Of a stretch of DNA of 64,000 nt, positions 1 to 32,330 are shown in pieces. This stretch comes from a bacterium. Its GTDB lineage: Bacteria > Ratteibacteria > UBA8468 > B48-G9 > DSTR01. Position numbers and translations under genes: made by a program. Positions within the stretch are counted from its first letter, which is position 1. Each line of letters opens with the position of its first letter. The stretch is taken from NCBI GenBank assembly GCA_029551285.1, contig JAKPFT010000087.1, positions 168 through 64,167 on the forward strand. The letters are read 5' to 3'. The notes under the pieces are model-generated. The model ran no database searches, was not told where the DNA came from, and saw only the letters and a list, made by a program, of their open reading frames with translations.

Positions 1-140
1 GGCACCCAGGTCAATGCCCAGGAACATTGTTTCAGCCATATACCATTATTTTAAGGAAAAAGGTTGTCTCGTCAAATCGTCTTGTGGTTTTCTTCCGGTA
101 ACTAAAGGAAGCATGGTAGAATTTAACCGGAGCTGTCACT

Positions 141-1262
141 ATGACCGGAGCAAACAGAAACTTAAAACAATTAGCCAGACAGTGTCAACAGAAGAACTGG
201 CCGGAGAATTTTTCTGATCTGGTGCAGGAATGTGTTGGTATTGACCTTGCCTGTTTTTACGGGAAAAGACACTTGAAGCATCCAGTTCTGGTGGCACCGG
301 GACAGCTGACAGTTCAGGCCAGCCAGGTAGTGAAGATTAAGGAAAGCGGTTATGCTGGCTGTATCCTGAAGTCGGCGGTTGGCGAAGAAGAAAATGGCTA
401 CTGCAGCATGGTTTTCCAGCGGAAGAAAGCAAGCTGGATTAAGACTGTGTACGACGAAGAAGACCTTTGCGGTCGGGAGCCTATTATCCACTGGGATGGT
501 CGGGCCGATACCAGAAATCTGGACCAGTATCTGCTTTTTGCCCGGAAGGCCAGAAGTCTTGATGACCAGGGGTTTTTTGTCGGCGGCTCCTTGCTCTGTC
601 ACCTTCCTGGTCCTGACGAGGAGTTTCATGAAAAAGAATGGAGGTTTACAGTGGGAAAACTCCAGGAAATCGGTTTTGACACCCTGGAGATTGATTTCTG
701 CCCGACCCTGGAGAAAGAAAGCGCGCTGGTGGAGAAAGCCAATATTCTGCGCTGGTATCGCACTGTCCCTGCTCTGGTGAAAAGTGTTGACCCCGGAATA
801 GCCGTCTTCCCGAAGATGCTTAATCTGCGGTGGGGCCTGGATTTTCAACTGGAAATGGCTTCCGCTGCGGTGCAGGGCGGTGCTGACGGATTGGTGGTGG
901 CTAACCGGATTTACCTGTCTGAACTTGGTTGTACCCACGGCGGCCGGATGCTTCGTCAGCAGAATCTTCTTCAGGTTAGAGAAATTCATCGTGCTTTTCC
1001 CCGTCTTCCCATTTCCGCTACCGGTGGTATTTACTCGGGGCGACATATGGCCGGGTATCTTCAGGCAGGTGCTCAAAACATTCAGTTGCTCAGTTATCTG
1101 ATGGGTCGGGTGAAAGCACCCTTCCTGCTGAAGAACGGGTATAAGTTTCAACAGGTTCTTTTTGAACTATTCTTCCATCCGGAGGACGGACTAATACCCC
1201 TGATGATGGAAAATGGCTGTCAGAATATCTGGCAGCTGCGGGAAGTCAGGTTATTGGTTTAG
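141..1262 (+). CDS. Dihydroorotate/dihydropyrimidine dehydrogenase-like FMN TIM-barrel protein
   Basis: 373-aa ORF. GIDL...PVLVAPG N-terminal motif and GADGLVVANR...ATGGIYSG C-terminal barrel motifs are typical of the DHOD/DHPD family. True start uncertain because the window begins just upstream. Confidence 0.5.
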   Translation: MTGANRNLKQLARQCQQKNWPENFSDLVQECVGIDLACFYGKRHLKHPVLVAPGQLTVQASQVVKIKESGYAGCILKSAVGEEENGYCSMVFQRKKASWIKTVYDEEDLCGREPIIHWDGRADTRNLDQYLLFARKARSLDDQGFFVGGSLLCHLPGPDEEFHEKEWRFTVGKLQEIGFDTLEIDFCPTLEKESALVEKANILRWYRTVPALVKSVDPGIAVFPKMLNLRWGLDFQLEMASAAVQGGADGLVVANRIYLSELGCTHGGRMLRQQNLLQVREIHRAFPRLPISATGGIYSGRHMAGYLQAGAQNIQLLSYLMGRVKAPFLLKNGYKFQQVLFELFFHPEDGLIPLMMENGCQNIWQLREVRLLV

Positions 1263-1863
1263 AAAGACTGTTTTCCTCCGCCAGCAGTCTGGCCGCAATT
1301 TCCTCGCACAGCACAACCACATCTTCTGTATCCAGGAACTTTTCAATTTCGCCATTGAAGAGAACCTTCAAATCAGCCGGGAATTCTTCGTCAGCCGGGT
1401 AGAAGAGAAAAAACAGTTTCACCGCTGGCAAAACAGATATTTGGATACCCGAAGGGGCCAGGTTAGTTTTCTGGCCGCCCCAGAAGAAGGCCTTTCTTTG
1501 CAGTACATCCGGTTGGGCCTGAAAGGCCGTGAGCAACGGTTTAATTACCCGGTCCACAAAGGAGGGATAGTAAATATTGCCTGCATTCATTTCCTTGAAA
1601 CTGATCAGTTGCCCCTGGTAACGACTACTGCGACTGTCAATCAGATAATGGACGATAACAATTTTTTCTCTCAGGGATAACCAGTCAGCCCCGGGAAAGT
1701 TGCCTTGAGAGAGAGATAACTGGCATGTTCGTCCAAGGTAGGGAAGAGTTAACAGGCCAGTTGGCTCGTCCCAGACGGCGCCGGTCCGGCCGGCAATAAC
1801 GGCCGGCGCTATTTTCTGTAGCTGGTGCCAGCCGAGGGATAAGGCCTCCTGAAGTTTCTCCAT
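1246..1863 (-). CDS. Hypothetical protein, last gene of the acs operon (possibly DUF3786-type, a family often linked to acs clusters)
   Basis: 205-aa ORF immediately downstream of acsE on the same strand. No family recognisable with certainty; the DUF3786 suggestion rests only on context and size. Confidence 0.35.
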   Translation of the reverse strand: MEKLQEALSLGWHQLQKIAPAVIAGRTGAVWDEPTGLLTLPYLGRTCQLSLSQGNFPGADWLSLREKIVIVHYLIDSRSSRYQGQLISFKEMNAGNIYYPSFVDRVIKPLLTAFQAQPDVLQRKAFFWGGQKTNLAPSGIQISVLPAVKLFFLFYPADEEFPADLKVLFNGEIEKFLDTEDVVVLCEEIAARLLAEENSLSKPIT

Positions 1864-1864
1864 G

Positions 1865-2740
1865 CTACACCTTCAGCCAGGAATGCGAGTAGATGGAACG
1901 GCCGGAAAGCACTTCGGCTGTTTTGGTGAATCTTCTTTTTTCTTCAGTAAGCGTAGCCGCGTCAAGTTGGCCTGTCAGACTCTCCTTTATCGTCCGGTTA
2001 ACTTCTGGTCGCTGACCGCGGGCCAGCGCTACCAGTTCGCTATCCAGAGCGTCAACGATGGCACTGTCCAGTCCGCAATCCATTAACATGGCCAGGTAGG
2101 TTTGATTCACCAGGGGCCGCAAGGAGTCCGGAACCCCATTGGAGACATTGGAAAGTCCGCAGGTGGACTTAAAGTCAGGCAAGATTTCCTTCAGCATCCG
2201 CATAAATTCCATCACGGCTACCACCTGGTCCTGCTGAAAAGCCACCGGCAAGACAATCGGGTCAAAATAAACATACTCGTGAGGCAGGCCAGCCTGGTCT
2301 ACCCAGGCAGCCATCTCCGCAGCCAGCGCACCCCGTTCGTTAGCGTCGCGAGGCATACCTTCTTTCCCCAGGAGCAGAGCAATGAAGCGGCAACGATATT
2401 TCTGCACCAGAGGAAAAAGCTGCTCCACCCGTTCCGCGGTGGCCTGAATGGAGTTAATCAGAGCGCGACTGCCTTCCATTTCCAGTCCTGTTCTGAGAGC
2501 TTCCGTATTGGTGGTGTCCAGCGAAAGGGGCAGGCTGGAAACTTCCCTCACAGTGGTAATGAGCCATTCCATTAATTTGGGCCCGTCTTTTCTGGCCGGT
2601 CCGATGTTCAAGTCAAGATAGTCCACCCCTGCCTGCTGGCTTAACACTACCAGTTGCTGTATCGGCTCTTTCCTCCTTTCTTTCATGGCGGCTGACAACT
2701 TCTTGTTCATAACATTGAGGTTTTCACCGATGAGCATCAT
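1865..2740 (-). CDS. acsE: Methyltetrahydrofolate:corrinoid/iron-sulfur protein methyltransferase (pterin-binding MeTr)
   Basis: 291 aa. N-terminal MLIGE(N/R)IN... matches the Moorella AcsE start, with LDxN(I/V)GP, LSLD(T/S)TN and GLSNVS blocks. Adjacent to acsC and acsB. Confidence 0.85.
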   Translation of the reverse strand: MMLIGENLNVMNKKLSAAMKERRKEPIQQLVVLSQQAGVDYLDLNIGPARKDGPKLMEWLITTVREVSSLPLSLDTTNTEALRTGLEMEGSRALINSIQATAERVEQLFPLVQKYRCRFIALLLGKEGMPRDANERGALAAEMAAWVDQAGLPHEYVYFDPIVLPVAFQQDQVVAVMEFMRMLKEILPDFKSTCGLSNVSNGVPDSLRPLVNQTYLAMLMDCGLDSAIVDALDSELVALARGQRPEVNRTIKESLTGQLDAATLTEEKRRFTKTAEVLSGRSIYSHSWLKV

Positions 2741-2768
2741 CTTGGCCTCCGGTCCTGAATATTCTCAG

Positions 2769-4109
2769 TTACTCTGCTTTCCAGTTCTTCAGAAAAACGG
2801 GGATGTAACTGGCTTCTCTCGGACCAAGAAGGATCTTCCAGCCAGGCAGTTCTTCCTCCAGTTCTCCCACCATACCGGCAACGACCCCTGGCAAAATGAG
2901 GGTTCGGTGGGCGATTTTTTCTTCCAAATGCGTCTGCTTAACCAGTTCGGCAATCTTTTCCGCATTAAACTTGTCCGCCGCCCACGCCGTCAGCACAGAC
3001 AATCCTTCAGCATCCTGGACCAGAAGGTAGGCCGGAACCCGAGAATTTTCAATTTCGCCGGAAACGACAAAATAGGTCAGGGAGAAGTTGGTGGTCACCA
3101 GTACGGGTGAGGATGGCCCCGGTTGACCGATTTCATAAAGGCCCTGAGGAGTGGCCATCGGTCGTTGAGGGTCGGTGAAGATATTAAGCCGTTCCAGGAG
3201 TAAGGGGAAAAGGATTTCTCCCTTTAACTCCGGGAGCACTACCAGGCTGGCATATTTGGCGATGGCTAAACAGGCGTGAAGAGCCTGTCTCAGCGGGTCC
3301 TGAGTGAGCGTGCCGGGCATGGTCAGGACCGGATAACCAAGTTCTTTAATGTGTCCCAGGATGGCCCCGCGGCGAATAGTTACCAGTTTCTCCAGCAGTT
3401 CCCTTCCCGAGGAGACTTCCGGATAAAGAACCAGGTCTGCCAGTCCAGGTCCAGAAAGTTTGCCTGCCAGTTCCACCAGTGTTTCAAGAGAAGCCCCGCG
3501 GACAACAAGCGGTAGGGAAAACTCTCTGGCCAGATTACCCATTTGCTCCCAGTTGGTGCTGTCAGCAGCGAAAAGTAGGGGTCGGCTCTGCAGACAACCT
3601 TTAACTGCTTCTCTCAATCTGGCGACTTCCTGACTCATGAGGAGCAGACATTTTCCGGTGGCGCAGGCTTTTTCCACCAGAGAGGAAAATCGGCCCTGCC
3701 CGGTGTCTTCAACGGCAATCAACTCCGCCTGCAGTTTTAAACCGACGCGTTCGTAGGAGAGACGGCCAATGTCAGCCAGTCTGGTAGTTATTTCCTCATC
3801 AGACATTCTCTCCGAGATCAGCACCCCGAGGGCTGGTGGATTGTAGAATGTTTTTTCGTGACGAAAGAGGACCGTTTCCCCTCCAAGTTTGATCTGGTTG
3901 TCTCCAGTGCCCACAGTGACCGTCCGGATGGGCGGGGCTGAGGCTTGAGCCAGCTGATTTTTCCCTTCTTCGCTGAGATGGGGACACCTAACTAATTCTG
4001 TTTTTCCCAGAGCCAGTTGCATGGCAAAGGCCAGACAGGTGGGGAAACCACACTCTTTGCAATTGGTTTTGGGCAGGTACTTGAAAATGTCCAGCGGTTT
4101 CAGAGCCAT
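2769..4109 (-). CDS. acsC: Corrinoid iron-sulfur protein large (gamma) subunit
   Basis: 446 aa. N-terminal CKECGFPTC...C 4Fe-4S motif of CFeSP AcsC, followed by a TIM-barrel-like region. Operon context between acsB and acsE. Confidence 0.85.
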   Translation of the reverse strand: MALKPLDIFKYLPKTNCKECGFPTCLAFAMQLALGKTELVRCPHLSEEGKNQLAQASAPPIRTVTVGTGDNQIKLGGETVLFRHEKTFYNPPALGVLISERMSDEEITTRLADIGRLSYERVGLKLQAELIAVEDTGQGRFSSLVEKACATGKCLLLMSQEVARLREAVKGCLQSRPLLFAADSTNWEQMGNLAREFSLPLVVRGASLETLVELAGKLSGPGLADLVLYPEVSSGRELLEKLVTIRRGAILGHIKELGYPVLTMPGTLTQDPLRQALHACLAIAKYASLVVLPELKGEILFPLLLERLNIFTDPQRPMATPQGLYEIGQPGPSSPVLVTTNFSLTYFVVSGEIENSRVPAYLLVQDAEGLSVLTAWAADKFNAEKIAELVKQTHLEEKIAHRTLILPGVVAGMVGELEEELPGWKILLGPREASYIPVFLKNWKAE

Positions 4110-4136
4110 GAGCCACTCCTTGAAAGTGAGCCGGCG

Positions 4137-6341
4137 TTACATAATCGGTTCCATTTCCAGAGCCGGATGTTTCTTTTCCTGGAGGAATGGTAAAATCGCT
4201 TCTTCCGTGACACCCACCGTTTCATCGGCAATTTTCTCAGGAAGGTCCGGAAGGCCGATTTCCGCCGCCCGTTTTTTTAACCGGTCCATGATCTCTTCCT
4301 TCAAGGCCTTTGGCATCCAGACCAGCCTTCTTATTCCTCCCTCAGCAGCCAGGTACTTACTCTGGGTAATGTTGAACTTGGAATGACCCAGGAATCCGGG
4401 TGTCTGCCGGCCACCGCCGATTGTTCCCGCCAGGGTAGTAAACTTCATGCCGCAGGGCGTTTCGCCTTTATAGTCGCGGTGTACCGTCATGATGCCGTTG
4501 CACATCGGCAGAACCACCGCCACACATTCACAGCAACCACAGGTGGTCATGGGGTCTACCATTAAACTGTAGATACTGACTTTTTCAATAGCGCCCCGGC
4601 TGGCCTGTCGCACAAAATTATTACAGCCTTCAAACTGGCCAAGTTTTTGATTCAAGACTGCACCCTTTTTCACCGGCTGGTTCGGCCCTTTGGGATTAAT
4701 TCTATTAGAACCTCTGCAGTCAAGCCAGGAGAAAGCTCCACACAGACCCGTCCGCTCCGGGGTAACGATGCAGACATGGGTAGGAGCGAAGGACTGACAT
4801 AAGGTGCAGGAATAAAAGGTATCCACCTCTTCGTCAGTCATCCCGGCCAGTCTTTCATCTCTCTTTGTCCAGACAGCCCTCGCCTGTTGAACCAGTTGCT
4901 TAACCGCGGCCTCTTCGGTGTAGATTTTCACCTGCACCTTGTCCAGGATATTGGCGAAAACTTCATGATACTTGGCATGGAGAACAACCCCCAGGTGTTT
5001 CAACAGGAGCCCTTTCTCTCTGGCTTTCTTGCTAATTCTCAGCCAGACAATGTCACGCTGGCCGATATGCATGACCCCGTTGATGTAGTTGAGATAATCG
5101 TGAATGTGACGTTCCAGGATTGGTTCAAAGTCCTCCTGCATTTCCCGTCCGGCCACCTGAACCAGGGTGGCCAGAGGTATCTGGCTTCCTTCGGGTAAGC
5201 TGTCCAGGTCAGGGCCAATGACTTCTATCCGGCCATCTTCCACCTGGTTCAACGGAAGAGAACTCGTCCATTCGCAGGCCAGAGTTTTTGTGCCCCCGGC
5301 TTCCACAAAAAGGTCCTCTTTTCTGATTCTTTCCCCCTCAAAGGCTGGTCCATAGGGAACCGGAATGGGAATTTTACTTACCGTAACTTTTAATCCCCGA
5401 ACCTCAACAGCCCTGGCCACAATCTGGTCATGGGGGACACCGGAAACCACGTGTTCATATGTACACACTCCGGTAGGAAGAATCTGAGGTATATCTGAGT
5501 CAGCGATGGTGGGAAAACCGAAATTGATGGCACCGGCAGCATTAGCGTACCAGCGGTCGGTAACCTCACCCAGGGCGATGACAAAGGCGAAAATCCGGTC
5601 CTTGTTATAGATGAGGATTTTCCGGTACTCGCCGGGCTGGATACCCCCAAAACTCATAGCGGCCCTGACCGCAAACCCAAGAGCAAAGACGGCCTGGGAG
5701 ATATCCGGGCCGAAAGGAACCAATCTTACTGGCCAGCCTAACTGCATCCCCGCGGCCTTAAGCTGTTCGGCAAACGTGGTACCCTGATGGCCAGCGCACA
5801 TGAAGACATAGAGATTTTTTTCCTGAAGTTCCTGAGCAATTCTGGCCGCTATTTTTTCTTCCGGCGCAGCTCCAACGATTGCGGCAAACCCGGGAGCCGT
5901 GCCATCGACAAATTCAATTCCCCGTTTTCTCAGGATGATATCGCTGGCCGCACCCAGCCAGAGTTTGCCCTCCGGCGCCTCTTCTTCCGGGGAATAAAAG
6001 TCAGGGTGCTCAAGGTAGGTAATTGCTTCAGCCATCTCTTCGGCAAAAAGGGTCGCCATTCCGGCATCAAGCACCGGCCCCAGGTATGGCAGATGGACTT
6101 TCTGGTAGACCGGTTCCGGAAGAAGCCTTTCACAGATAGCGAAAACTTTTTCCATATCGGCCAGTTTCCTCACCGGAAGGCCTGACAGCCCATAAATGAT
6201 GGGCAGGTAATAAGCAGTTTCCGGAAAACCAACCTCTGCGCCTGAGCCGTGTTTGTCCATAGCCTGTTGCCATTTTTTCCTGGCTTCGGAAACAATCTCG
6301 TGAGCCCCTCTGATAGCCGCAGCGGCGATAATTTTGGACAT
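4137..6341 (-). CDS. acsB: Acetyl-CoA synthase (CO-methylating), ACS catalytic subunit
   Basis: 734 aa. Shares FYSC(T/V)LCQSFAP(T/N)HVCIVTPER(T/V)GLCGA(F/V)SWLD and the C-terminal ...HPAL(E/T)M(E/D)PIM blocks with Moorella AcsB. Confidence 0.9.
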   Translation of the reverse strand: MSKIIAAAAIRGAHEIVSEARKKWQQAMDKHGSGAEVGFPETAYYLPIIYGLSGLPVRKLADMEKVFAICERLLPEPVYQKVHLPYLGPVLDAGMATLFAEEMAEAITYLEHPDFYSPEEEAPEGKLWLGAASDIILRKRGIEFVDGTAPGFAAIVGAAPEEKIAARIAQELQEKNLYVFMCAGHQGTTFAEQLKAAGMQLGWPVRLVPFGPDISQAVFALGFAVRAAMSFGGIQPGEYRKILIYNKDRIFAFVIALGEVTDRWYANAAGAINFGFPTIADSDIPQILPTGVCTYEHVVSGVPHDQIVARAVEVRGLKVTVSKIPIPVPYGPAFEGERIRKEDLFVEAGGTKTLACEWTSSLPLNQVEDGRIEVIGPDLDSLPEGSQIPLATLVQVAGREMQEDFEPILERHIHDYLNYINGVMHIGQRDIVWLRISKKAREKGLLLKHLGVVLHAKYHEVFANILDKVQVKIYTEEAAVKQLVQQARAVWTKRDERLAGMTDEEVDTFYSCTLCQSFAPTHVCIVTPERTGLCGAFSWLDCRGSNRINPKGPNQPVKKGAVLNQKLGQFEGCNNFVRQASRGAIEKVSIYSLMVDPMTTCGCCECVAVVLPMCNGIMTVHRDYKGETPCGMKFTTLAGTIGGGRQTPGFLGHSKFNITQSKYLAAEGGIRRLVWMPKALKEEIMDRLKKRAAEIGLPDLPEKIADETVGVTEEAILPFLQEKKHPALEMEPIM

Positions 6342-6384
6342 TGGTGAACTCCTTTTGCCATACTAATTCTGCCGGGGAAATATC

Positions 6385-10060: not shown

Positions 10061-11041
10061 CTATATCTGTTCCGGGTTAACCGGCTTGTTCAGAACCGGT
10101 GTCATCAGTTCTGCGCTCCAGTCAAGAAAAAGTTTAGCCGCCGCAGGGTGTCTCATCACGACAATGTCGGCGCCGGCCAGCGTCAGCAAAGCTGCCGTGA
10201 TGGCCTCCATCATTATTCCCCTCGTTTTTTCATCACCCATGGCCGGGTTCTCGCTCCGGGGCAGGATGGCTTCCTTAGTTTTCCACACTTCTTTAGCCAG
10301 ATTACAGACCATGGGAAAACCTAACTTATCATCCTGTTGGATTAAGGCGGCGATGCGGTCCCTTTCCATTACGGAATAAGTGTACTCCAGCCCGTAACCA
10401 AGGCCGCCAGTGGTGGGGTCAATAATGATTTTGTTTTCGGGCACTCCCAGTTCCAGGAGAAGGATGTTTAACTGCTTGGCTAAATTGACATCAATCGGTG
10501 AGCTGGCGATGACTACCTGACGATAGGCGATGGCTGCTGCTCCTATGGCCTTATAGTTTTTCTCCTGGACCGGCCCTATGGCCACATTGCGACCAGCAGC
10601 GACTTCCGCGACTAACTTCAGAACTTCAGCATCCTTCTGGAGGTGGTCACAACCGAAAATTAGTAGCGGTACCTCCACTGTCTTCAGAACTGCTTCAACG
10701 GTTTTGACAGCTTCGGCCGCCGAACGGTTGGAACCCATGGGGTCAATACTGGCCAGGTGCAGCGCGATCGCTCTGGCCTGATACTTTTCTACATTTACTC
10801 TGGCCCAGGTGGCAGGGTCATTCAACGCTGATCCGTAAGGTACCAGACACGCTTCCGGCCAGTTCTCCGGAATTTCATCTCTGACTTCCATAGCGACCAG
10901 CGGTCCGCGGTGACCATCTCCGTCAAAGACGTGGTAATTAAAAGTTTTCTGACCGCCCGCCGTGACCGAGTTTTCACCAGTGCCCAGGGTGACTTCTCTT
11001 ATTTTTCCGGTGTAGGTCGGACCGGGAATTTGCAGGCTCAT
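10061..11041 (-). CDS. acsD: Corrinoid iron-sulfur protein small (delta) subunit
   Basis: 326 aa TIM-barrel protein in the acs cluster. Size and position fit the CFeSP delta subunit. Confidence 0.75.
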   Translation of the reverse strand: MSLQIPGPTYTGKIREVTLGTGENSVTAGGQKTFNYHVFDGDGHRGPLVAMEVRDEIPENWPEACLVPYGSALNDPATWARVNVEKYQARAIALHLASIDPMGSNRSAAEAVKTVEAVLKTVEVPLLIFGCDHLQKDAEVLKLVAEVAAGRNVAIGPVQEKNYKAIGAAAIAYRQVVIASSPIDVNLAKQLNILLLELGVPENKIIIDPTTGGLGYGLEYTYSVMERDRIAALIQQDDKLGFPMVCNLAKEVWKTKEAILPRSENPAMGDEKTRGIMMEAITAALLTLAGADIVVMRHPAAAKLFLDWSAELMTPVLNKPVNPEQI

Positions 11042-11227
11042 CTTTCCCCCAGATTTTTATGAATTTCTTTCCCGAATTACTTACCGCTCTCGCTGCCGAA
11101 ACCTTCCCCGAACCAATACCGTTCAGCACTTTTCAGGTACCGAATCATCTCTTCTCTTTCCCGAAGATTCTTCAACCAGGCCAGCGGTTTCCTTGGTTTT
11201 CCTGGCTGGAAGCGCTGGTTGCTCTGT

Positions 11228-11986
11228 TCAGGTTTCATGGCTGTCCTCCATCCTGAAAAGAATTGTTTCCACCGCCCTCAGAAAATGAGGCGCTTTTTCA
11301 GAGAAAGGTTTCCCTGCGATTTCTGTCTCGCGAATGGTTTCCTCGTAGGGGAGAAATCCGAGAAGGTTCAAACCTTTCAACTTTTCCCGAAGAAAGTCCT
11401 CTTCGCTCTTACTTCTCACGAAGTTACCCACCACGCCAATCTTTTTGAGGCCAAGTTGCCGGGCCAGAGTATCAATCCGATAGGCTGTCTGAACGCTTTT
11501 TTCGCCCGGTTCGGTAAGGATGATGAGCCAGTCAATTCCCATGGTGGTACCCCGGCCCAGATGCTCAATTCCGGCTTCCATGTCAAGGATGACAAACTCC
11601 TCACGCCTCAGAATCAGATGCCGCAACAGGGCTTTCAAAAAGGCATTTTCCGGGCAGGTGCAACCTGAACCTGCTGCTCTGATGGTGCCCATCACTCCCA
11701 GGAGAAGGTTGCCCTGGCGAAGGAAATACTTTTCCGGGATGTCGTCTACGCGGGGGTTAAGTTTGAAAACAGGCGAGGTTTCACTTTCGGTTCGCTCCTG
11801 AATGAGCTCCTTCATCTCTGACAGCGGCACAACGCTACCCTCTAATCCAAGCGTCAGCTGAAGATTCATGGCCGGGTCAGCGTCAATCAAAATCACTCTG
11901 AAGCCACGACGCTGTAACACCCACGCTAAACCAGCGGTGAAGGTTGTCTTGCCAGTTCCACCCTTGCCGCTGACAGCAATTTTCAT
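11228..11986 (-). CDS. cooC: CooC/AcsF-type Ni-insertion ATPase (MinD/ParA fold)
   Basis: 252 aa. Starts directly at the Walker A motif (MKIAVSGKGGTGKTT). First gene of the minus-strand acs unit. Confidence 0.85.
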   Translation of the reverse strand: MKIAVSGKGGTGKTTFTAGLAWVLQRRGFRVILIDADPAMNLQLTLGLEGSVVPLSEMKELIQERTESETSPVFKLNPRVDDIPEKYFLRQGNLLLGVMGTIRAAGSGCTCPENAFLKALLRHLILRREEFVILDMEAGIEHLGRGTTMGIDWLIILTEPGEKSVQTAYRIDTLARQLGLKKIGVVGNFVRSKSEEDFLREKLKGLNLLGFLPYEETIRETEIAGKPFSEKAPHFLRAVETILFRMEDSHET

Positions 11987-11993
11987 AGTTTAA

Positions 11994-12022
11994 AGTATAA
12001 AGGCTACCCCTGTCACTGTCAA
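11994..12022 (-). promoter_or_regulatory. Sigma70-like promoter for the acs operon (TTGACA-17 bp-TATACT), coordinates approximate
   Basis: On the minus strand I read a perfect -35 hexamer, a 17-bp spacer and a near-consensus -10 that ends about 7 nt before the cooC ATG. This would make the transcript leaderless or nearly so. Confidence 0.35.
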
Positions 12023-12047
12023 GAGGGATTGATTCATCAGAAATTCC

Positions 12048-12210
12048 AACATAAGAAAAGTTGTTGAGGAGTATGTCTAACTTCGGGAAGATTTCTGCCC
12101 ACACGCCCTTGTCGGAGACAGGACTACGAACGCTGCCGCTTTGCCTGCTTGTCTTGTAACTGCGCCATGGGATAGCGTGTGGTGAAATCTTAGCTCGTTG
12201 ACACCCCGGA
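12048..12210 (+). repeat. Copy 1 (short form) of a 135-260 bp repeated element with conserved 5' and 3' blocks
   Basis: About 123 bp essentially identical to copy 2. 5' block ...GAGTATGTCTAACTTCGGGAAGATTTCTGCCCACACGCC..., 3' block ...GCTGCCGCTTTGCCTGCTTGTCTTGTAACTGCGCC...GAAATCTT..CGTTGACAC. The terminal blocks can pair (AAGATTTC / GAAATCTT). Confidence 0.8.
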
Positions 12211-12314
12211 TTTATGCCGGGATTTTAAGGGCATTTCTCGCACGGTTCACTTCAGCGGGAAAACTTGCCACGGAGGGTGCGGTGCGGAAAGATAGCGATG
12301 TCTTACATGGTTTA

Positions 12315-12665
12315 TCAAACAATGAGAAGGGCCGTTTTCAGAGACCTTGCCACTTTCTCCATTATTTCTGCGGGAAGAGACCCAACCTTCTTCAGTAGAA
12401 TTGTCTCATGGACAACGGCTATCTTCTCGGTCTTTATAAAAGAGGGCCTCTTAAGCCCCGTTTGAGAAAATGTTGTAGTGTGTTCGCTGATCTCCACCCA
12501 GGTCTCACGCAATATTGCGCTTGCTGGCGCTCTTGAGAAAATCCCGATTACAATCACATCTTCCCCGTGAGTTACCCACACCAGCACGGGTCTGACTTTC
12601 TCAGAGGTGAAATCGGTAAAGGGGAATCGCACCAGCCAGATTTCTCCCCGTTCAGGTTTGGGCAT
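12315..12665 (-). CDS. Type II toxin, PemK/MazF family (start chosen at the internal MPKPERGEIWLV)
   Basis: Has the MazF/PemK hallmark (G(E/D)IW.V.F.P..G.E...RP.LV) and is about 116 aa from the internal Met. Overlaps the upstream small ORF by about 14 nt, as type II TA pairs typically do. Confidence 0.55.
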   Translation of the reverse strand: MPKPERGEIWLVRFPFTDFTSEKVRPVLVWVTHGEDVIVIGIFSRAPASAILRETWVEISEHTTTFSQTGLKRPSFIKTEKIAVVHETILLKKVGSLPAEIMEKVARSLKTALLIV

Positions 12666-12855
12666 CGTAGATATCATCCTCTTCCAGCCACTCTTTGAAA
12701 CCTGTTTCAGCAACGGTCATCATGGCAGCAGTCTCAGCTCTCTTTTCTAAGGCCTCGGTGATAGCAAGAATCTCTCTGGGAGGCAGTTGAAGAATCATCT
12801 CAAAAACCATCTTCCTGATTTCTTCAGTACTCATGTTCAGGATAACTTTAGCCAT
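12652..12855 (-). CDS. Putative antitoxin (67 aa) cognate to the MazF/PemK-like toxin
   Basis: Small acidic protein (C-terminal EEDDIYDAQT) directly upstream of, and overlapping, the toxin gene. Family not recognised. Confidence 0.4.
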   Translation of the reverse strand: MAKVILNMSTEEIRKMVFEMILQLPPREILAITEALEKRAETAAMMTVAETGFKEWLEEDDIYDAQT

Positions 12856-12994
12856 TTACCACCTCCGTGATAGTCTTATGGCCGTTTCCAGCACGTTTTT
12901 GTGTACCGCTCCATTATACCACTGGCAATGCGATTATAAAACCTGATGAACGCCAGGTTAAAATCCGACATAAAAAAGGCAGTGAAAAATGTAT

Positions 12995-13127
12995 TTAACT
13001 TCAGAAAGATTTCTGCCCACACGCCCTTGTCGGAGACAGGACTACGAACGCTGCCGCTTTGCCTGCTTGTCTTGTAACTGCGCCATGGGATAGCGTGTGG
13101 TGAAATCTTAGCTCGTTGACACCCCGG
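12995..13127 (+). repeat. Copy 2 (short form) of the repeated element
   Basis: Same sequence as copy 1 from AAGATTTCTGCCC through TTGACACCCCGGA. Lies about 40 nt upstream of the 13169 CDS, in the same orientation. Confidence 0.8.
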
Positions 13128-13168
13128 ACCTTATATCAGAATTTCAGGATTCATGATAGAATACTGGT

Positions 13169-14269
13169 ATGGCACAGGGGAAAAGGGTACCGGCGGTTTT
13201 CATCGCAGCTACCCGGCAGAACGACGGAAAGACCGTCTTAAGTTTAGGGCTGGTTCTGGCGCTCCAGAAAAAGTATCACCAGGTTGGTTTTATCAAACCG
13301 GTTGGCCAGAAGTACGTCGTGGTAGAAGGACAGAAGGTGGATAAAGACGCGCTGCTGATGAAGCAGGTTTGTTCTCTTAAGGAAAACCTGAAAGATATCA
13401 ATCCCATTGCTGTGGAGGAAGGTTTTACCAGACGGTACTTAGAAAGACCGCATGTTCACGGCCTGATGCAGCAGATTAAGGAAAGTTACATCCGGGTGGC
13501 AGAGGGAAAAGATGTTATCGTGATTGAGGGTACCGGACACGGAGGAGTGGGGACAGTCTTTGATCTGAGCAACGCGGCAGTGGCCAGGCTTCTGGAAGTA
13601 CCGGTGGTTTTAATTTCTATCGGGGGAATTGGCCGGCCGATTGACGAGATCGCCCTGAACAGGGTCTTTTTTGCTAACTATGGAGTAAGTTTGAAAGGTG
13701 CCCTGATCAACAAGGTACTGCCTGAGAAAAAGAGCCTGGTAGAAAAATATGTTTCTATCGGACTGACCCGGCAGCAACTTTCTCTGCTGGGAGTTATTCC
13801 TTATGTGCCGGTGCTGGCTCATCCGACAGTCGGACAGGTTTTTGAAACCGTTAAGGGCAAATTGTTGGTTGGGGGAGAAAGGATGCGGCAGCAGGTGCTG
13901 AATGTTCTGGTGGGGGCGATGACCCCCCGGCACGCTCTGGATTATTTCCGTCCCGGTTCCCTGCTTATTACTCCGGGAGACCGGGAAGATATCATTCTGG
14001 CAGCGCTGTCACATTCATCCACGATGAGCACTGGTTCCCCGATGATTTCTGGAATTGTTCTTACCGGTGGGTTGGCACCTCACAAGACTATTCTGGAACT
14101 TCTGGTGAGGAGTAATCTTCCTACACTGCTGTCTACAGAAGGAACCTACGAGGTGGCCTCAATGGTTCATTCCATGGAGGTGAAAGTGAGGGCGGAAGAT
14201 ACAGAAAAAGTTGAAATTGCCAGGCGGCTGGTGGCGGAAAACGTTCGGGTGGAGGAACTTTTCAACTGA
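13169..14269 (+). CDS. Phosphotransacetylase N-terminal-like protein (BioD-like P-loop plus DRTGG domain), standalone
   Basis: 366 aa. The N-terminus resembles the BioD-like domain of long Pta (VFIAATRQNDGKTVLSLGLVLAL). A DRTGG-like segment (LLITPGDREDIILAAL) follows. No PTA_PTB catalytic domain is present. Confidence 0.5.
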   Translation: MAQGKRVPAVFIAATRQNDGKTVLSLGLVLALQKKYHQVGFIKPVGQKYVVVEGQKVDKDALLMKQVCSLKENLKDINPIAVEEGFTRRYLERPHVHGLMQQIKESYIRVAEGKDVIVIEGTGHGGVGTVFDLSNAAVARLLEVPVVLISIGGIGRPIDEIALNRVFFANYGVSLKGALINKVLPEKKSLVEKYVSIGLTRQQLSLLGVIPYVPVLAHPTVGQVFETVKGKLLVGGERMRQQVLNVLVGAMTPRHALDYFRPGSLLITPGDREDIILAALSHSSTMSTGSPMISGIVLTGGLAPHKTILELLVRSNLPTLLSTEGTYEVASMVHSMEVKVRAEDTEKVEIARRLVAENVRVEELFN

Positions 14270-16167
14270 TGAAACAGGTCAGCCTAACCTTTTATCCAGA
14301 AGGGATTCGGATAACGGTCCCAGCCGGTACCGATCTTCTTACCGCAGCCTTGAAAGCAGGACTGGCGCTCAGTTCCTCCTGTGGCGGCAAAGGAGTGTGT
14401 GGTCGGTGCCGGGTAAAAATTAAAACCGGGGATGTTGAAAGCGAACCGACAGGGAAAATTTCTGCCGAAGACCGCAGAACCGGTATTTACCTGGCCTGTC
14501 GCACTCTGGTACGCGGGGATACTGAGGTAGAAATTCTTCCTCAGACCAGGGTTTCCTTCAGGCCCGGGGTAGAAATTTTCCGCAGGGAAGAAGTAACCCC
14601 GGAAGCAAAAGGTTGTTTATTCTGGCTCTTTCCCCGGCACGCCCTGACCAGAAAATTTGTTGTTCCCATGGGAAAACTGGTGGCTCAACGGCCAGGGAGC
14701 GACTTCGGTAGAATTGAGTATTTCTTAAAGGAACAGGGTTCAGGAGAGATTTCGGTTAACCTTGCTACCCTACGCCGGTTACCGATGGTACTTCAGCAAA
14801 ACCGGGAACTCGTTACAGTGACTGTCGGTGAACGGCCGGGATTGACGGAAGTGATTCTGGTAGAACCTGGAGATACGAGCTTTTCTCATTACGGCGTGGC
14901 CGTAGATGTGGGCACAACGACCATTTCCGCCTGTCTGGTTAATCTTAACACCGGGCAGGTATTAGGAACTGAGATGGCTTTCAACCGGCAGGTCTCCTAC
15001 GGAGAAGATGTTATCACCCGGATGATGATGGCCGAAAAGGAGGCTGGTCTGGAGCAACTTCACCACGCCGTGGTGGAGACGATTAACGAACTAATCCGGA
15101 GTTTGACTCTTGGCTCCAGGGTGAATTTGACTGATATTACCGCGGTGGCCTGCTCCGGAAATATGACCATGATGCATCTTCTCTTAAAAATTAACCCTTC
15201 TTTTCTGCGGCGAGAACCGTATGAACCCAGCACCAACAATTTCCCGGTAATAGAAGCTGCCGAGGTGGGGATCAGGGTTAATCCTTCGGCGTTACTGGCC
15301 GCGGTGGGCGGAGTTTCTTCCTATGTAGGAGGGGACATCACTGCGGGGGTATTGACCCTGGGGCTGCTCAATAGTTCCTCTCTTTGTATGCTGTTAGACA
15401 TCGGGACCAACGGTGAAATGGTTCTGGGTAACAAAGACTGGTTGGTCTGCTGTTCCGCTTCCGCCGGACCGGCTTTTGAAGGCAGCGGCGTTCAGGATGG
15501 GATGAGAGCCATACCCGGCGCCATTGAGGAAGTGAGGATTCTTTCTGGCCCGGCCGGAGAACTGGTTGAAGTGGAAACCATTGCCGGCCATCCGCCCATA
15601 GGTATCTGCGGGTCAGGCTACATGTCTCTTTTAGCCGCTCTTTTTGAAAAAGGTATTATTGACCGCTCAGGTCACTTTACAGAAGTGAGCCAGAGGATGG
15701 TGGGACGCCGGGAAGAAAGAGGTTATCAGGTGGTGGCGGCAGAGGCATCCGGTCACGGCCGGCCGATTGTGATTACCCAGATTGACATTGAGAATCTGCT
15801 GCGGGCGAAAGCCGCTATTTACGCCGGGATGACCAGCCTGGTGCGACACGCTGGAATTTCCTTCCAGGATATAGATAGAATCTACATTGCGGGTGGCTTC
15901 GGCAGCAGAATCAATATTCGCAGTGCTATTAAAATTGGTCTGTTACCGGACCTGCCCGAAGAACGTTTCCAGTTTGTGGGCAACACTTCCCTTCAGGGGG
16001 CTTACTGGTTTTTGATGAGTAAGTCGGCCCGGGAGGCAAGCCGGGAGATAATCAACCGTATGACACCTGTAGAACTGTCGCTGGACCCTGAATATATGGA
16101 GGAGTACCTGCGAGCCCTTTTCATTCCTCACACTGATTTGAATCTGTTTCCCTCGGTAAGGAAATGA
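14269..16167 (+). CDS. Reductive activator of corrinoid Fe-S protein (RACo/AcsV-like): N-terminal 2Fe-2S ferredoxin plus ASKHA ATPase
   Basis: 632 aa. N-terminal plant-type ferredoxin motif (SSCGGKGVCGRCRVKI) followed by a long ASKHA/DUF4445-like region. Size and WL context match RACo. Confidence 0.75.
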   Translation: MKQVSLTFYPEGIRITVPAGTDLLTAALKAGLALSSSCGGKGVCGRCRVKIKTGDVESEPTGKISAEDRRTGIYLACRTLVRGDTEVEILPQTRVSFRPGVEIFRREEVTPEAKGCLFWLFPRHALTRKFVVPMGKLVAQRPGSDFGRIEYFLKEQGSGEISVNLATLRRLPMVLQQNRELVTVTVGERPGLTEVILVEPGDTSFSHYGVAVDVGTTTISACLVNLNTGQVLGTEMAFNRQVSYGEDVITRMMMAEKEAGLEQLHHAVVETINELIRSLTLGSRVNLTDITAVACSGNMTMMHLLLKINPSFLRREPYEPSTNNFPVIEAAEVGIRVNPSALLAAVGGVSSYVGGDITAGVLTLGLLNSSSLCMLLDIGTNGEMVLGNKDWLVCCSASAGPAFEGSGVQDGMRAIPGAIEEVRILSGPAGELVEVETIAGHPPIGICGSGYMSLLAALFEKGIIDRSGHFTEVSQRMVGRREERGYQVVAAEASGHGRPIVITQIDIENLLRAKAAIYAGMTSLVRHAGISFQDIDRIYIAGGFGSRINIRSAIKIGLLPDLPEERFQFVGNTSLQGAYWFLMSKSAREASREIINRMTPVELSLDPEYMEEYLRALFIPHTDLNLFPSVRK

Positions 16168-16922
16168 TCACTGTTGGAGTTGCCGGCAAGGGTGGGACAG
16201 GCAAAACTACAGTCTGTGCCCTGACAATTGTGGCGCTGAAAAGAGCTGGCAAGAGACCTCTGCTGGCCGTTGACGCTGACCCCAGCAGCATGCTGTGTGA
16301 GGTGCTGGGAGTGCTGGCGCCCCCAAGTTTGGTCAGTCTGGTGGATGAGGTTGGTCGCTCTTTTGATAAACTGCCGCAGGGCATGGACAAGAGCAGATAC
16401 TTAGAGTACCGGATTCGCGAGGCGGTCAGTGAAAACAGGGATTTTGACGTCCTGCTGATGGGACGCACCGAGGGGCCAGGCTGCTACTGTTATGCCAATC
16501 ACCTGCTTCGCGATCATCTTGACCGGCTGGAGAAAAATTACCAGTTTGTGGTCATTGATAATGAGGCCGGACTGGAGCATCTTTCCCGGCGGACCACCAG
16601 ACAACTGGACCTTCTTCTTCTGACCACCATAACCAGCCGAACTTCCCTGCTAAGTGTGGAGCGAATCCTGGAGATGGTTAATGACAGGAATTTAGATATC
16701 CGGGTGGGGAAAGTCTGTCTTGTGGTGAACGAAATGGCAGGAAATTCTTTGCCTTCACTGGCAGAAAAGTTTTCTCTGCCTTCTTTCCGTCTGCCGGTTG
16801 ACAGGGAAATATTAACTCGCAGTGAAAAAGGCCAGGGGTTGATGGACCTTCCTGATGATTCTCCTGCTCTTGTCAGCATCAAAGATAATCTTCTACCGAT
16901 TCTAAACTCCCTGGTCAATTAG
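16164..16922 (+). CDS. cooC: Second CooC/AcsF-type Ni-insertion ATPase
   Basis: 252 aa. Walker A at the N-terminus (MITVGVAGKGGTGKTT). Overlaps the RACo gene by 4 nt. Confidence 0.8.
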   Translation: MITVGVAGKGGTGKTTVCALTIVALKRAGKRPLLAVDADPSSMLCEVLGVLAPPSLVSLVDEVGRSFDKLPQGMDKSRYLEYRIREAVSENRDFDVLLMGRTEGPGCYCYANHLLRDHLDRLEKNYQFVVIDNEAGLEHLSRRTTRQLDLLLLTTITSRTSLLSVERILEMVNDRNLDIRVGKVCLVVNEMAGNSLPSLAEKFSLPSFRLPVDREILTRSEKGQGLMDLPDDSPALVSIKDNLLPILNSLVN

Positions 16923-23710: not shown

Positions 23711-24900
23711 GAACCAGCTCCGAGAGCCAGTTGTAAGATACCAATCAGGTCAAAGATGTCAATACTGGCATCCTGGTTGAGGTCAGCCGCGGAGATAAGT
23801 TTCTCCGGATAAGGCACCTGGTAGGTGAAACTGCCCAGGGAAACTTCACTTTCAGTGGCCATTCTCAGACATAAAACGACATCAATGACATTGACCGTCC
23901 CGTCAAAATTCAGGTCGCCTTTTCTCACCACCGGGTCGGTGAGAGAAAAATTTACGCTGGAAAGATTCTGCCCCGGAAGAACCGTTACTGGATTGTCAGG
24001 ATAGAAATGAGAAGGCTCGGTCAAAACATCAAACAAGCCGTCACCGTTGGCGTCAAGAAAAGCCCAGAGGTAGTAGCATCCGGTGGAAACAGAAGAGATG
24101 GTAAAAGGACCAGGACCGGGAGAGACCGTTGAATAAGCCGGGACGCTCAGGTAAGAGTTCGCGGGAAGCAGATAGATGAAGATTAAACCAGCACAGTTTC
24201 CCTGATAGTCTATCCATCCCGAGATTGAACCCGGTTGTGTCTGGACGGTGTAGGTGGCGGAAGCGACACTGCTGGGATTAAGTCCGGACTTGTAAGCACG
24301 CGCCTTCAGGCTACAACTGCTGGTGAGATTCAATGGTGTGGTATAGAGCGGCGAAGTTAAGCCCGGGTCACTGCCGTCAGTGGTATATCTGATGGTGGCC
24401 CCTGGTGTCTCGCAGGAAAGAGAGACATTGACCGGGCTGGTGTAACTACCTGGCGCCGGCGAAAAAATAGGTTCAATGACTGTATTAACCTGGGTAATTC
24501 TCTGGCTGCCAGAGATCGGAATCTTCATTTCTCCGCTGGCGCTGATTGTTCCGGAAAACTTACAGGTACCTGCGGCGTTTGAAGGAATCTGAATCGTATA
24601 ACTGATGGTAAAGGAACTCACCCCGGAGGTACTGTACTGCAGCCAGGTGTAGGTCTGGCCGATTACTTTAATATAGGAAGGTACAGCCGAAGAAATGGTC
24701 CAGCCTTCAGGCACGGTTTCGTTGACAATCACGGCGGCCGGCGGGTTGGCCGGGTCAGTACTCACATTGATGGTGACCTGGACTGAACCACCGGGAACGA
24801 AGGTTGCGGGAAGGTTTCTGCTGGCGCTGGTACCTGCCTGAAGACCGTTCACCAGGGGGACCAGCAGAAGCAAAACACAGAAGATGCAGGTTTTACACAT
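23707..24900 (-). CDS. Secreted surface protein with CHB_HEX_C-like (Fn3-like) domain and C-terminal dockerin-like domain
   Basis: 397 aa. Signal peptide. FSPAPGSY...IRYTTDGSDP...KARAYKSGLNPS matches the chitobiase/hexosaminidase C-terminal-like domain. C-terminal duplicated Ca-binding dockerin segments (DLNFDGTVNVIDVVLCLRMA ... DLNQDASIDIFDLIGILQLA). Confidence 0.6.
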   Translation of the reverse strand: MCKTCIFCVLLLLVPLVNGLQAGTSASRNLPATFVPGGSVQVTINVSTDPANPPAAVIVNETVPEGWTISSAVPSYIKVIGQTYTWLQYSTSGVSSFTISYTIQIPSNAAGTCKFSGTISASGEMKIPISGSQRITQVNTVIEPIFSPAPGSYTSPVNVSLSCETPGATIRYTTDGSDPGLTSPLYTTPLNLTSSCSLKARAYKSGLNPSSVASATYTVQTQPGSISGWIDYQGNCAGLIFIYLLPANSYLSVPAYSTVSPGPGPFTISSVSTGCYYLWAFLDANGDGLFDVLTEPSHFYPDNPVTVLPGQNLSSVNFSLTDPVVRKGDLNFDGTVNVIDVVLCLRMATESEVSLGSFTYQVPYPEKLISAADLNQDASIDIFDLIGILQLALGAGS

Positions 24901-24916
24901 GGCTTTTCCCTGAAAA

Positions 24917-25549
24917 CTAATTTCTGGTAATCTTTCTTAAGAGGAGGATGACATCAAGGATATCCACGATGTCATTGCCATCAAGGTCAGCCCGGTTTAG
25001 AACCGGTGGTTCCATTCCCAGAGCCATTCGAAGACAGAGGGCAAGGTCAACAATATCAAGATTTTTGTCCCCGCTGATGTCGCCGGCGATGTAGATAATT
25101 TCTCCGGAAGTCAGGTTGACATTACGCGCCCACCCGTCGGCCCAGCTATTGGAATCCGGACCAAGGCACACGGCCTGGTATTCTATACCTTTTCGAGCAT
25201 CCCAGATTCTGAAGGTAATCGTATCACCCTGGCGGGCGCCCTCATCCACTGTCGGTGTGGTGATGTCATCACCGTAGACTTCCATAAAGCCGTAGAATCC
25301 GGCAGTGTGAATTACAAATCTGCCGCAGAGCACACCATTTGGGTCAAAAGCTGCCACCTCATCGCCAGGCTGTCCGGCCACTCCATTAATACTCACCTGC
25401 CCGTAGAAAGGGCATGAAGTTGGCGTGTTGATGGGAGTTGCAAAGTGGGCTGCCAGCAAAAGGTTGCTTTCAACGAAGAGAATAGCACCGACGACAAACC
25501 CGGTTTGTCTCTTTCTCCACCCCACTTTGCTCCTTTCTATTGTGACCAT
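24917..25549 (-). CDS. Small secreted protein: one FYG/Cys-Cys module plus dockerin-like tail
   Basis: 210 aa. Module FYGQVSINGVAGQPGDEVAAFDPNGVLCG...VYGDD.TTPT.DEGA..GDTITFRIW. C-terminal GDISGDKNLDIVDLALCLRMALG...ADLDGNDIVDILDVILLLRKI. Confidence 0.55.
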   Translation of the reverse strand: MVTIERSKVGWRKRQTGFVVGAILFVESNLLLAAHFATPINTPTSCPFYGQVSINGVAGQPGDEVAAFDPNGVLCGRFVIHTAGFYGFMEVYGDDITTPTVDEGARQGDTITFRIWDARKGIEYQAVCLGPDSNSWADGWARNVNLTSGEIIYIAGDISGDKNLDIVDLALCLRMALGMEPPVLNRADLDGNDIVDILDVILLLRKITRN

Positions 25550-29847: not shown

Positions 29848-29862
29848 GGCACCTGCCCTCCT

Positions 29863-30261
29863 TTACTCAACGACGAAAAGATTGACCTGGTGACGGTCAT
29901 GGTTCTTCGTCCAGACAGCATTTTCCGGCTTATCAACCACCGCAGTTTTGCCGTTAATCTTGAAGGTAATAACATCTCCAGGTTCAGCCCCCTCATCTCT
30001 GGTGGTGGTGGGGTCATCGCCGTAGACGCAAAGATACCCGAAGACGCCTAATTTTTTTACGATGAACTTCCCGCAGAGGTTACCCTGAGGGTCGTAGGCG
30101 GTGATGACATCGCCTTCTTTGACCGGTGCATTGTTCACCATCGCCTGGCCGTAAAAATCAACACCTTCAGGGGTGGGAGTAACTCTTTCCTCAGCCAGCA
30201 AAATAGCGGTTAACATCAGCGACAGAAGGAGCCCGAAGATCATATGCCCTCTCATCTTCAC
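29863..30261 (-). CDS. Small secreted protein consisting of a single FYG/Cys module
   Basis: 132 aa. Signal peptide then FYGQAMVNNAPVKEGDVITAYDPQGNLCG...VYGDDPTTTRDEGAEPGDVITFKI. Confidence 0.5.
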   Translation of the reverse strand: MKMRGHMIFGLLLSLMLTAILLAEERVTPTPEGVDFYGQAMVNNAPVKEGDVITAYDPQGNLCGKFIVKKLGVFGYLCVYGDDPTTTRDEGAEPGDVITFKINGKTAVVDKPENAVWTKNHDRHQVNLFVVE

Positions 30262-30301
30262 CCCCTGATTGTCAGGATAAACATTGTGGTCTCTGTCTTT
30301 C

Positions 30302-32185: not shown

Positions 32186-32330
32186 GGAAGGCTCCTTCGG
32201 TTGGCAGGGTTTCTGGCTCATTTTTCTATTGTTTTTAGCCGCACTTCACCTATGCTGCAATTTTACCCCGGCACACCCTTTTCTGTCAAGTCGCTTTTTT
32301 TAGACGCTAAAATACCCGCATAAAGGCATG

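Follow-up and report, generated by a model that had tools for sequence, protein, structure and literature searches.

Short non-coding imperfect palindromes such as ERIC, Correia/NEMIS and RUP occupy intergenic and promoter DNA and come in long and short versions, set apart by an internal segment; Correia elements duplicate the dinucleotide TA. The insertion sequence (IS) IS26 reportedly moves in translocatable units (work credited to Harmer, Moran and Hall, 2014), in which one IS plus adjacent DNA is said to integrate next to a resident IS26. In Pseudomonas, TIME-COMP1/2 make 5-bp duplications and carry flanking TIMEs in direct or inverted orientation (PMC4133298). In Acinetobacter, identical MITEs (miniature inverted-repeat transposable elements) of 439 and 502 bp are stated to flank class 1 integrons (PMC3934969; discussion of PMC6382973), and a 76-kb region lies between two copies of MITE-297 according to the latter discussion. 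Here we describe a locus that bears comparison with these systems: a mazEF-type toxin-antitoxin (TA) operon, bracketed by two copies of a short repeat and lying between two divergent Wood-Ljungdahl operons. It was found in a stretch of 64,000 nucleotides (the window; positions 168 to 64,167 of contig JAKPFT010000087.1, assembly GCA_029551285.1) from a bacterium of the GTDB lineage Ratteibacteria, UBA8468, B48-G9, DSTR01.

The repeat is a MITE, and a transposition-type event made the 7-bp duplication GATTCAT at the site. We consider it likely that two 191-bp derivatives of this MITE bound the mazEF operon as one 1110-bp unit, which was inserted in a 65-bp divergent promoter region.

The MITE family and the mazEF unit

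The assignment of the repeat as a MITE, a non-autonomous DNA transposon, follows from its inverted repeats, target duplications, small size, absence of coding capacity and dispersed copies. At full length the element measures about 293 bp (long copies span 291 to 296 bp; all copies together, 191 to 296 bp). In an alignment of eight copies, the consensus ends CTAAAATTCCGACATAA and TTATGTCGGAATTTTAG are 17-bp terminal inverted repeats (TIRs) that are perfect reverse complements, and the TIR motif, allowing up to 3 mismatches, has 6 matches in the window against 0.13 expected. The element ends were set from the TIR consensus alone and the flanking bases were read afterwards; target-site duplications of 7 to 8 bp adjoin the inverted repeats, perfect at several copies and degenerate at others (Table 1). 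There are at least eight dispersed copies, four in the window (copies 1 to 4) and four at distinct loci in the same digester metagenomes (L005, L009, L010, and L011; L004 is the same locus as L009). The extra loci were obtained by a pattern scan of metagenome contigs and share no flanking similarity with the window, whereas three other candidates from that scan (L006 to L008) were chance matches and not family members. Copies are pairwise 78 to 84% identical, with 91% between copy 4 and L005. Their longest stop-free stretches lie on differing strands and in differing frames, so no open reading frame (ORF) is conserved, and a small ORF inside the element (MSNFGKIS...) was rejected on the same ground. 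The apical domain of about 100 nt, which folds into a three-way junction with z as low as -7.1, is well kept in sequence among long copies that are otherwise about 80% alike.

The family is new, with no match in the Rfam, plasmid, viral or reference-genome collections. Rfam at gathering scores gave no match over the whole 64 kb, and at E values up to 10 over 11900-13300 it gave only chance-level matches, all outside the element. The core pattern returned two chance matches only (Ferruginibacter and Stenotrophomonas) among GTDB species representatives, a collection that lacks the source genome, and no true match among viral contigs, and BLAST of the full-length copy 4 against plasmids returned nothing. 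A likeness of the DNA after copy 1 to the promoter after copy 3, seen in a first MAFFT alignment, was taken for an alignment artefact, since BLAST did not support it beyond the inverted repeat.

Copies 1 and 2 are direct repeats on either side of the mazEF-type operon, which is on the minus strand. They are identical, without gaps, over 123 bp (12088-12210 and 13006-13128, offset 918 bp), and the match can be extended to 12078-12210 with 2 mismatches. The sequence-only reading of this DNA had described a TA pair flanked by direct copies sharing about 123 identical bp and placed in the divergent region between cooC-acs (minus) and DRTGG/RACo/cooC (plus); the exact match, the toxin and upstream ORF between the copies, and the neighbouring genes bear this out, and its figure of about 80% identity for copies 3 and 4 compares with 82% measured (32307-32598, minus, against 56018-56308, plus). 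Both bracketing copies are short forms: nhmmer matches them to profile positions 3-90 and 191-292, and positions 91-190, the apical domain, are gone. This common deletion of 100 nt has its junction between TAC microrepeats of the long form and is in no other copy found.

One target duplication brackets the whole unit (12038-13147), because its outer flanks are equal, GATTCAT on both sides, whereas the inner flanks gggcattt and aacgccag do not match. The cargo between the copies is 728 bp long and holds mazEF only, without transposition genes; its GC content (47.8%) differs mildly from that of the window (53.1%) and the flanking genes (about 51%).

The arrangement is not an assembly artefact, because several independent assemblies carry the same sequence, two of them across both copies: separate metagenome assemblies (L003/L013, L012, and L014 to L017) are 99.9 to 100% identical to the window here, and the contigs spanning both copies are L003/L013 and the 16.5-kb L012. 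The short contigs L014, L015, and L016 end at window position 13120 and L017 begins at 12216, at or a few bases from the edges of the 123-bp block, as expected of a multi-copy repeat. The MITE repeatedly causes breaks in the assembly of these metagenome-assembled genomes, and binned genomes probably contain too few of its copies; the family can be used to annotate such genomes and to explain their contig breaks. The MITE-mazEF-MITE insertion is present in every sample seen.

The toxin matches the PemK_toxin profile of Pfam almost from end to end (E = 1.3e-14; score 54.8 bits, cutoff 23.1). It has 114 homologues, the closest of which other than itself, on contig L025, is 66% identical and is preceded at the same position, with the same 14-nt overlap, by a 64-aa ORF that is 61% identical (E = 1e-27) to the 67-aa protein of the window. 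Because L025 carries this homologous pair with the same overlap, the 67-aa ORF and the toxin gene form a conserved two-gene module. The 67-aa protein had no match in Pfam or NCBIfam even at permissive thresholds, and the predicted antitoxin is placed in an uncharacterised group found alongside this MazF subfamily. No donor of the TA unit was found: the contigs with the exact MazF, seven in number, all represent this same locus, and the next homologue is the one at 66%. In L025 itself (positions 1-6348; a Chloroflexi-labelled contig, JGI 3300020109), small genes (HEPN, UPF0150, DUF2283, and several unannotated ORFs of 60 to 115 aa) form a dense island interleaved with ABC ATPase genes, which looks like a TA or defence-gene cluster.

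A consensus scan places two predicted promoters ahead of the TA pair, and the -35 of the first (TTAACC-17-TATAAT) is partly built from the terminal bases of copy 2. Transcription of the pair would run towards cooC. Since no terminator was predicted on the minus strand between mazF and cooC, read-through from the TA operon into cooC-acs is possible. The left arm of copy 2 (12957-13005) is the most divergent and most AT-shifted arm of the family (GC content 28.6%, against 37 to 49% in the others), with most changes from the consensus, by eye, being G/C to A/T. The arm is placed immediately upstream of the predicted TA -35, where an AT-rich UP-like region would sit.

The empty site and the predicted DRTGG promoter

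The closest DRTGG homologues outside the population, 77% and 76% identical at the amino acid level, lie on contig L018 and on contigs L019/L020 and carry names within Candidatus Omnitrophica/Omnitrophota, by which the host too is probably a member of that group. Each of the three contigs is collinear with the window to either side, at a DNA identity of about 70%; the cooC and DRTGG start codons are 67 bp apart in L018 and 101 bp apart in L019/L020, with neither TA operon nor MITE between them, and in more distant relatives the gene order differs. Because the two closest relatives, collinear on both sides, lack the TA pair and the repeat, the TA cassette with both repeat copies is a lineage-specific insertion; a comparison of the syntenic region, which the sequence-only reading had proposed, thus reveals a short spacer in the relatives.

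In silico deletion of 12038-13154 (the unit and one duplication) yields a spacer of 65 bp with the junction …GGGATTGATTCATGATAGAAT…. Promoters were assigned by simple sigma-70 consensus scoring and are predictions only. On this scoring, the reconstructed spacer would contain two back-to-back promoters with overlapping, palindromic -35 boxes: a plus promoter (CTGTCA-18-TG-TAGAAT) ending 6 nt before the DRTGG ATG, and a minus promoter (TTGACA-17-TATACT) ending 7 nt before the cooC ATG. The same layout is predicted at the same positions in L018 (plus, TTGTCA-18-TG-TAAAAT; minus, TTGACA-18-TAAACT), and L019 keeps the TG-TAGAAT-6 nt-ATG arrangement for DRTGG. A palindromic -35 (TTGTCAA/TTGACAA) is shared between the two promoters in both the reconstructed site and L018. 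Both divergent Wood-Ljungdahl operons apparently give leaderless or near-leaderless mRNAs, the -10 ending 6 to 7 nt before the ATG and no Shine-Dalgarno sequence being visible (window, 11984-12022 and 13154-13171; L018, 7931-8003; L019, 7897-8003).

According to these predictions, the insertion splits the DRTGG/RACo promoter between its -35 and its extended -10 and leaves the cooC promoter intact. The old DRTGG -35 is now 1117 bp further from the -10 (the 1110-bp unit plus one 7-bp duplication), its position is taken by ATATCA (3 of 6 consensus matches), and the scan now finds no plus-strand promoter upstream of DRTGG. The earlier suggestion that the position could disturb regulation agrees with an insertion in promoter DNA, within the predicted spacer of the DRTGG promoter. 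The predicted promoter is split although its layout is conserved in L018, yet every sample seen carries the insertion, which makes the locus a natural test of how far a -35 is dispensable at extended -10, apparently leaderless promoters.

Mosaic copies and the origin of the unit

Outside the exact core, copies 1 and 2 are 64% alike over the left 49 to 50 nt and 79% alike over the right 38 to 39 nt, compared with 59 to 90% for unrelated copies. Zero differences over 123 bp beside such divergent ends imply that the copies are mosaic and that the core, deletion included, has been homogenised by recombination or gene conversion; a tract of this origin does not date the insertion. The sequence-only reading had called the copies essentially identical and, from this, the event recent. 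The first statement holds for the 123-bp core but not for the copies as wholes, which are 191 bp each and 88.8% alike; the second finds no support in this argument, the identity being limited to the core beside ends as diverged as those of unrelated copies. This is a caution for such readings in general: where the ends of a repeat are old, an exact core is no guide to the date of the insertion.

The inverted-repeat variants of the two copies pair better across copies than within them, which is suggestive but not decisive. The left end of copy 2 (L2, GTTAAAATCC) matches the right end of copy 1 (R1, reverse complement CTTAAAATCC) at 15 of 18 positions, and the left end of copy 1 (L1, CAGAAATTCC) matches the right end of copy 2 (R2, reverse complement CTGAAATTCT) at 13 of 17, against 12 of 18 for L1 with R1 and 12 of 17 for L2 with R2. 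The end variants of the family include CTTAAAATCC and CNGAAATTC. The duplex dG is -11.0 for L2 with R1 and -1.5 for L2 with R2; in addition, the in silico chimeras L1+R2 and L2+R1 have closed termini in their minimum free energy folds, whereas those of the native copies are not closed.

A two-step history would account for both the cross-matched ends and the exact core, and we lean slightly towards it, with a little less than even confidence. A solo MITE (L1...R2) would have entered the promoter spacer and made the GATTCAT duplication. Homologous recombination through the MITE cores would then have brought in the segment R1-mazEF-L2, whose source was either a 919-bp circle of one MITE and the TA operon or, by ectopic conversion, another MITE-TA-MITE locus; this exchange would have left the exact 123-bp core with its shared 100-nt deletion. 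The earlier proposal, TA cargo insertion or element-mediated recombination, stands to this extent: the repeat is mobile, recombination is among the viable routes, and the insertion is lineage-specific.

Several points weigh against this history, or against the reading of the locus as a whole. The two-step route needs more events, and a circle with a normally inserted MITE predicts a duplication at the inner flanks, where none is present. Among the seven contigs with this MazF there is no solo-MITE allele or excised form, both of which the sequence-only reading had suggested looking for, and no second composite site or 919-bp circle junction. The cross-copy TIR match is modest (chance about 0.01, by rough estimate), the L1/R2 pair alone is unconvincing, and in other old copies, too, the TIRs within an element match at no more than 11 to 14 of 17 positions. 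The relatives, at only about 70% DNA identity, do not allow the order and age of the events to be read, and all promoters are consensus predictions. Neither an autonomous IS with these inverted repeats nor a transposase was found in the window and the fetched loci. As to movement as a unit, no second site with another duplication was found and the short-form MITE occurs nowhere else, although fragmentary metagenomes make this weak evidence of absence.

One-step composite transposition is a nearly equally probable course of events: a trans-acting transposase of a related autonomous IS would use the outermost inverted repeats (L1 and R2), move the 1110-bp unit and make GATTCAT. On this route the copies would have come to flank mazEF at another locus beforehand, with gene conversion homogenising their cores either earlier or later than the move. 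A single step needs fewer events and would explain why one 7-bp duplication surrounds the whole unit and none lies at the inner flanks; the within-copy TIR matches are also, by eye, inside the range of other old copies, and the MITE-bounded composites TIME-COMP1/2 have been shown experimentally to transpose with target duplications (PMC4133298). Against it stands the better pairing of TIR variants across copies, especially of L2 with R1; moreover, no second site of the unit was found and no transposase is known.

It is unlikely that the dispersed MITE copies serve a transposase-free translocatable unit as landing sites, with the 919-bp circle of one MITE plus mazEF excising and integrating again by host homologous recombination between cores. 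If so, TA modules, and perhaps further small cargo, might move from one MITE-marked promoter region to another in Omnitrophota with no dedicated recombinase, and mosaic copies with an identical core and cross-matched ends would be the trace that such a move leaves.

We hold it very improbable that the repeat acts as a structured RNA with a cis-regulatory role (a riboswitch-like leader or a small RNA, for example), its copies being regulatory duplicates. The long forms do fold as a rod, an extended imperfect hairpin whose apex is a three-way junction (z = -3.6 and -7.1, compared with shuffled sequences), and copies 2, 3, and 4, L010, and L011 are sense-oriented upstream of genes. However, L005 is antisense to its neighbour, copy 1 and L009 lie between convergent genes, the predicted promoters of downstream genes are 3' of the element, and the short form folds with z = -1.3 only. 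RNAalifold on six long copies gave no support by covariation (3 of 74 pairs compensated; covariation term, +1.29), Rfam has no match, and identity of 78 to 84% over the entire length is typical of repeats rather than of independently conserved RNA cores. A cis-regulatory RNA was rejected on account of the inverted repeats, target duplications and mixed orientations.

Hardly more credible is an ancient arrangement or a local tandem duplication, with the TA pair and the repeats native to the operon junction. Direct repeats 918 bp apart that both carry the same deletion would fit it, but in the relatives the site is empty (67 or 101 bp), the family occurs at unrelated loci with target duplications of its own, and the copy ends differ like those of unrelated copies, which is not expected from local duplication. 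An ancient conserved cassette, the case that the sequence-only reading had named as speaking against its own view, was not seen in L018 or L019/L020.

TA pairs are common as cassettes in chromosomal integrons, and the imperfect palindrome has GTCTAAC / GTTGAC motifs recalling RYYYAAC / GTTRRRY, but an attC-like site with the TA pair as its cassette is the least credible reading of all, as the copies are single, dispersed and bounded by 7- to 8-bp target duplications, their 191 to 296 bp are well over attC size (57 to 141 bp), the locus has neither an array nor an adjacent integrase gene, and GTTGACA does not fit GTTRRRY.

Other features of the window and comparison with known systems

Table 1. 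Positions of the unit, its neighbours, predicted promoters and MITE copies (window positions unless a contig is named; TIR, terminal inverted repeat)
Feature	Position	Strand	Remarks
CdhD	10061-11041	-	Neighbour, left side
cooC	11228-11986	-	Neighbour, left side
Predicted cooC-acs promoter	11994-12022	-	TTGACA-17-TATACT; 11 of 12 consensus matches; untouched by insertion
Predicted pre-insertion -35 of DRTGG promoter	12016-12021	+	CTGTCA; palindromic with cooC -35
Left target-site duplication	12031-12037		GATTCAT; adjoins outer end of copy 1; boundary from family TIR consensus; with right duplication, perfect around whole unit
MITE copy 1	12038-12228	+	191-bp short form; left TIR CAGAAATTCCAACATAA, right TIR TTATGCCGGGATTTTAA
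Exact 123-bp block	12088-12210	+	Shared with 13006-13128; contains deletion junction between GGACTA and CGAAC
Non-coding cargo, copy 1 inner end to mazF stop	12229-12314		Inner flank without target-site duplication
MazF/PemK-family toxin gene	12315-12665	-	116 aa; Pfam PF02452 (PemK_toxin), profile positions 1-108 of 109
Predicted cognate antitoxin gene	12652-12855	-	67 aa; GGAGGTG ribosome-binding site; 14-nt overlap with mazF
Predicted TA promoters	12913-12961	-	TTAACC-17-TATAAT; TTTATA-16-TG-TATAAT; consensus scan
MITE copy 2	12957-13147	+	191-bp short form; left TIR GTTAAAATCCGACATAA, right TIR TTATATCAGAATTTCAG
Right target-site duplication	13148-13154		GATTCAT; adjoins outer end of copy 2
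Predicted extended -10 of DRTGG/RACo/cooC operon	13154-13162	+	TGaTAGAAT; 6 nt upstream of ATG at 13169
DRTGG (DRTGG/AAA_26 protein)	13169-14269	+	Neighbour, right side
RACo	14269-16167	+	Neighbour, right side
Second cooC	16164-16922	+	Neighbour, right side
MITE copy 3	32307-32598	-	292-bp long form; flanks CGTCTAA / CGTCTAA, perfect duplication
MITE copy 4	56018-56308	+	291-bp long form; flanks AATTTGAC / AATTTGAC, perfect duplication
MITE copy on L005	L005, 3714-4007		Long form; flanks GGTTTCC / GGTTTCC, perfect duplication
MITE copy on L009	L009, 1241-1534		Long form; flanks degenerate
MITE copy on L010	L010, 621-916		Long form; flanks degenerate
MITE copy on L011	L011, 4159-4451		Long form; flanks match at 6 of 8 positions

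A small ORF of 53 to 56 aa is called between cooC and CdhD in the window (11077-11238, minus), in L012 (5118-5279) and in the relative L018 (7006-7176); it has no Pfam match, and the acs cluster may here encode a small conserved protein.

Copy 4 lies in the divergent intergenic region (55957-56400) between the gene of a 4515-aa protein (minus) and that of a TPR protein (plus), and by eye it is flanked by sigma-70-like promoters, TTGCGC-17-TATAAT leftward and TTGACC-17-TATCCT rightward. The 4515-aa product (42278-55825, minus) is a predicted secreted giant protein with about 13 tandem repeats of about 50 aa that are RCC1-like by eye; it has DNA repeat families D1 and D3 to D5 at 42.6-44.6 kb and a C terminus that looks dockerin-like by eye. 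In the N-terminal part of the TPR protein gene (56383-58965), upstream of the TPR repeats, an 84-nt stretch (56890-56973) is 80% identical to 40691-40774, where we would guess at a paralogue. Many diverged direct repeats of 130 to 230 nt (families D2, D6 to D11, and D15) occupy 24272-31720, within and between large ORFs, and the span looks like a paralogous surface-protein cluster; a predicted secreted protein with CHB_HEX_C / Fn3-associated domains is encoded at 30302-32221.

Among known systems, the TA pair resembles type II MazEF/PemIK modules in its full-length toxin of the PemK/MazF fold, its small upstream overlapping antitoxin gene and its own predicted promoter, but differs in that the antitoxin belongs to no Pfam or NCBIfam family. 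The repeat resembles ERIC, Correia/NEMIS and RUP as a short non-coding imperfect palindrome with intergenic or promoter sites and size variants; it shares no sequence similarity with them, however, and has a full form of about 293 bp, a 100-nt apical three-way-junction domain and 7- to 8-bp duplications. The likeness to IS26 translocatable units would lie in the predicted product, which is a resident copy, cargo and a second direct copy with a duplication at the outer ends only. Whereas those units are moved by Tnp26 encoded in the unit, the MITE encodes nothing, so host homologous recombination would be needed, and the comparison is offered for a possible mechanism, not for membership.

The Acinetobacter composites likewise have identical MITE copies bracketing cargo in the manner of a composite transposon, with flanking duplications; they are plasmid-borne, with resistance cargo of several to 76 kb, whereas the unit here is chromosomal, measures 1.1 kb, carries a TA pair and has mosaic copies. 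Tn6645 was rejected as an analogue, being bounded by ISAba3 and not a MITE-bounded composite. In TIME-COMP, too, two copies of a non-autonomous element of about 260 bp flank a transposase-free cargo, one target duplication surrounds the unit, and the copies on either side may be identical or almost identical. The inverted repeats of TIMEs are of the Tn3 type and 38 bp long, their duplications measure 5 to 6 bp, and their mobility has been shown experimentally; in the present case the inverted repeats are 17 bp and unrelated, the duplication is 7 to 8 bp, mobility is inferred, a TA pair forms the cargo, and an uncultivated, Omnitrophota-like bacterium is the host. MITE-bounded composite units are thus already known, and this one is mechanistically ordinary unless the translocatable-unit reading is true. 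What the locus adds is a precisely resolved case of a TA pair reaching the core of a Wood-Ljungdahl cluster, with its ends, target duplication, empty site and reconstructed promoter defined. New, compared with the described composites, are the MITE family, the very small unit, the TA cargo, the uncultivated phylum and the insertion inside a conserved divergent Wood-Ljungdahl promoter.

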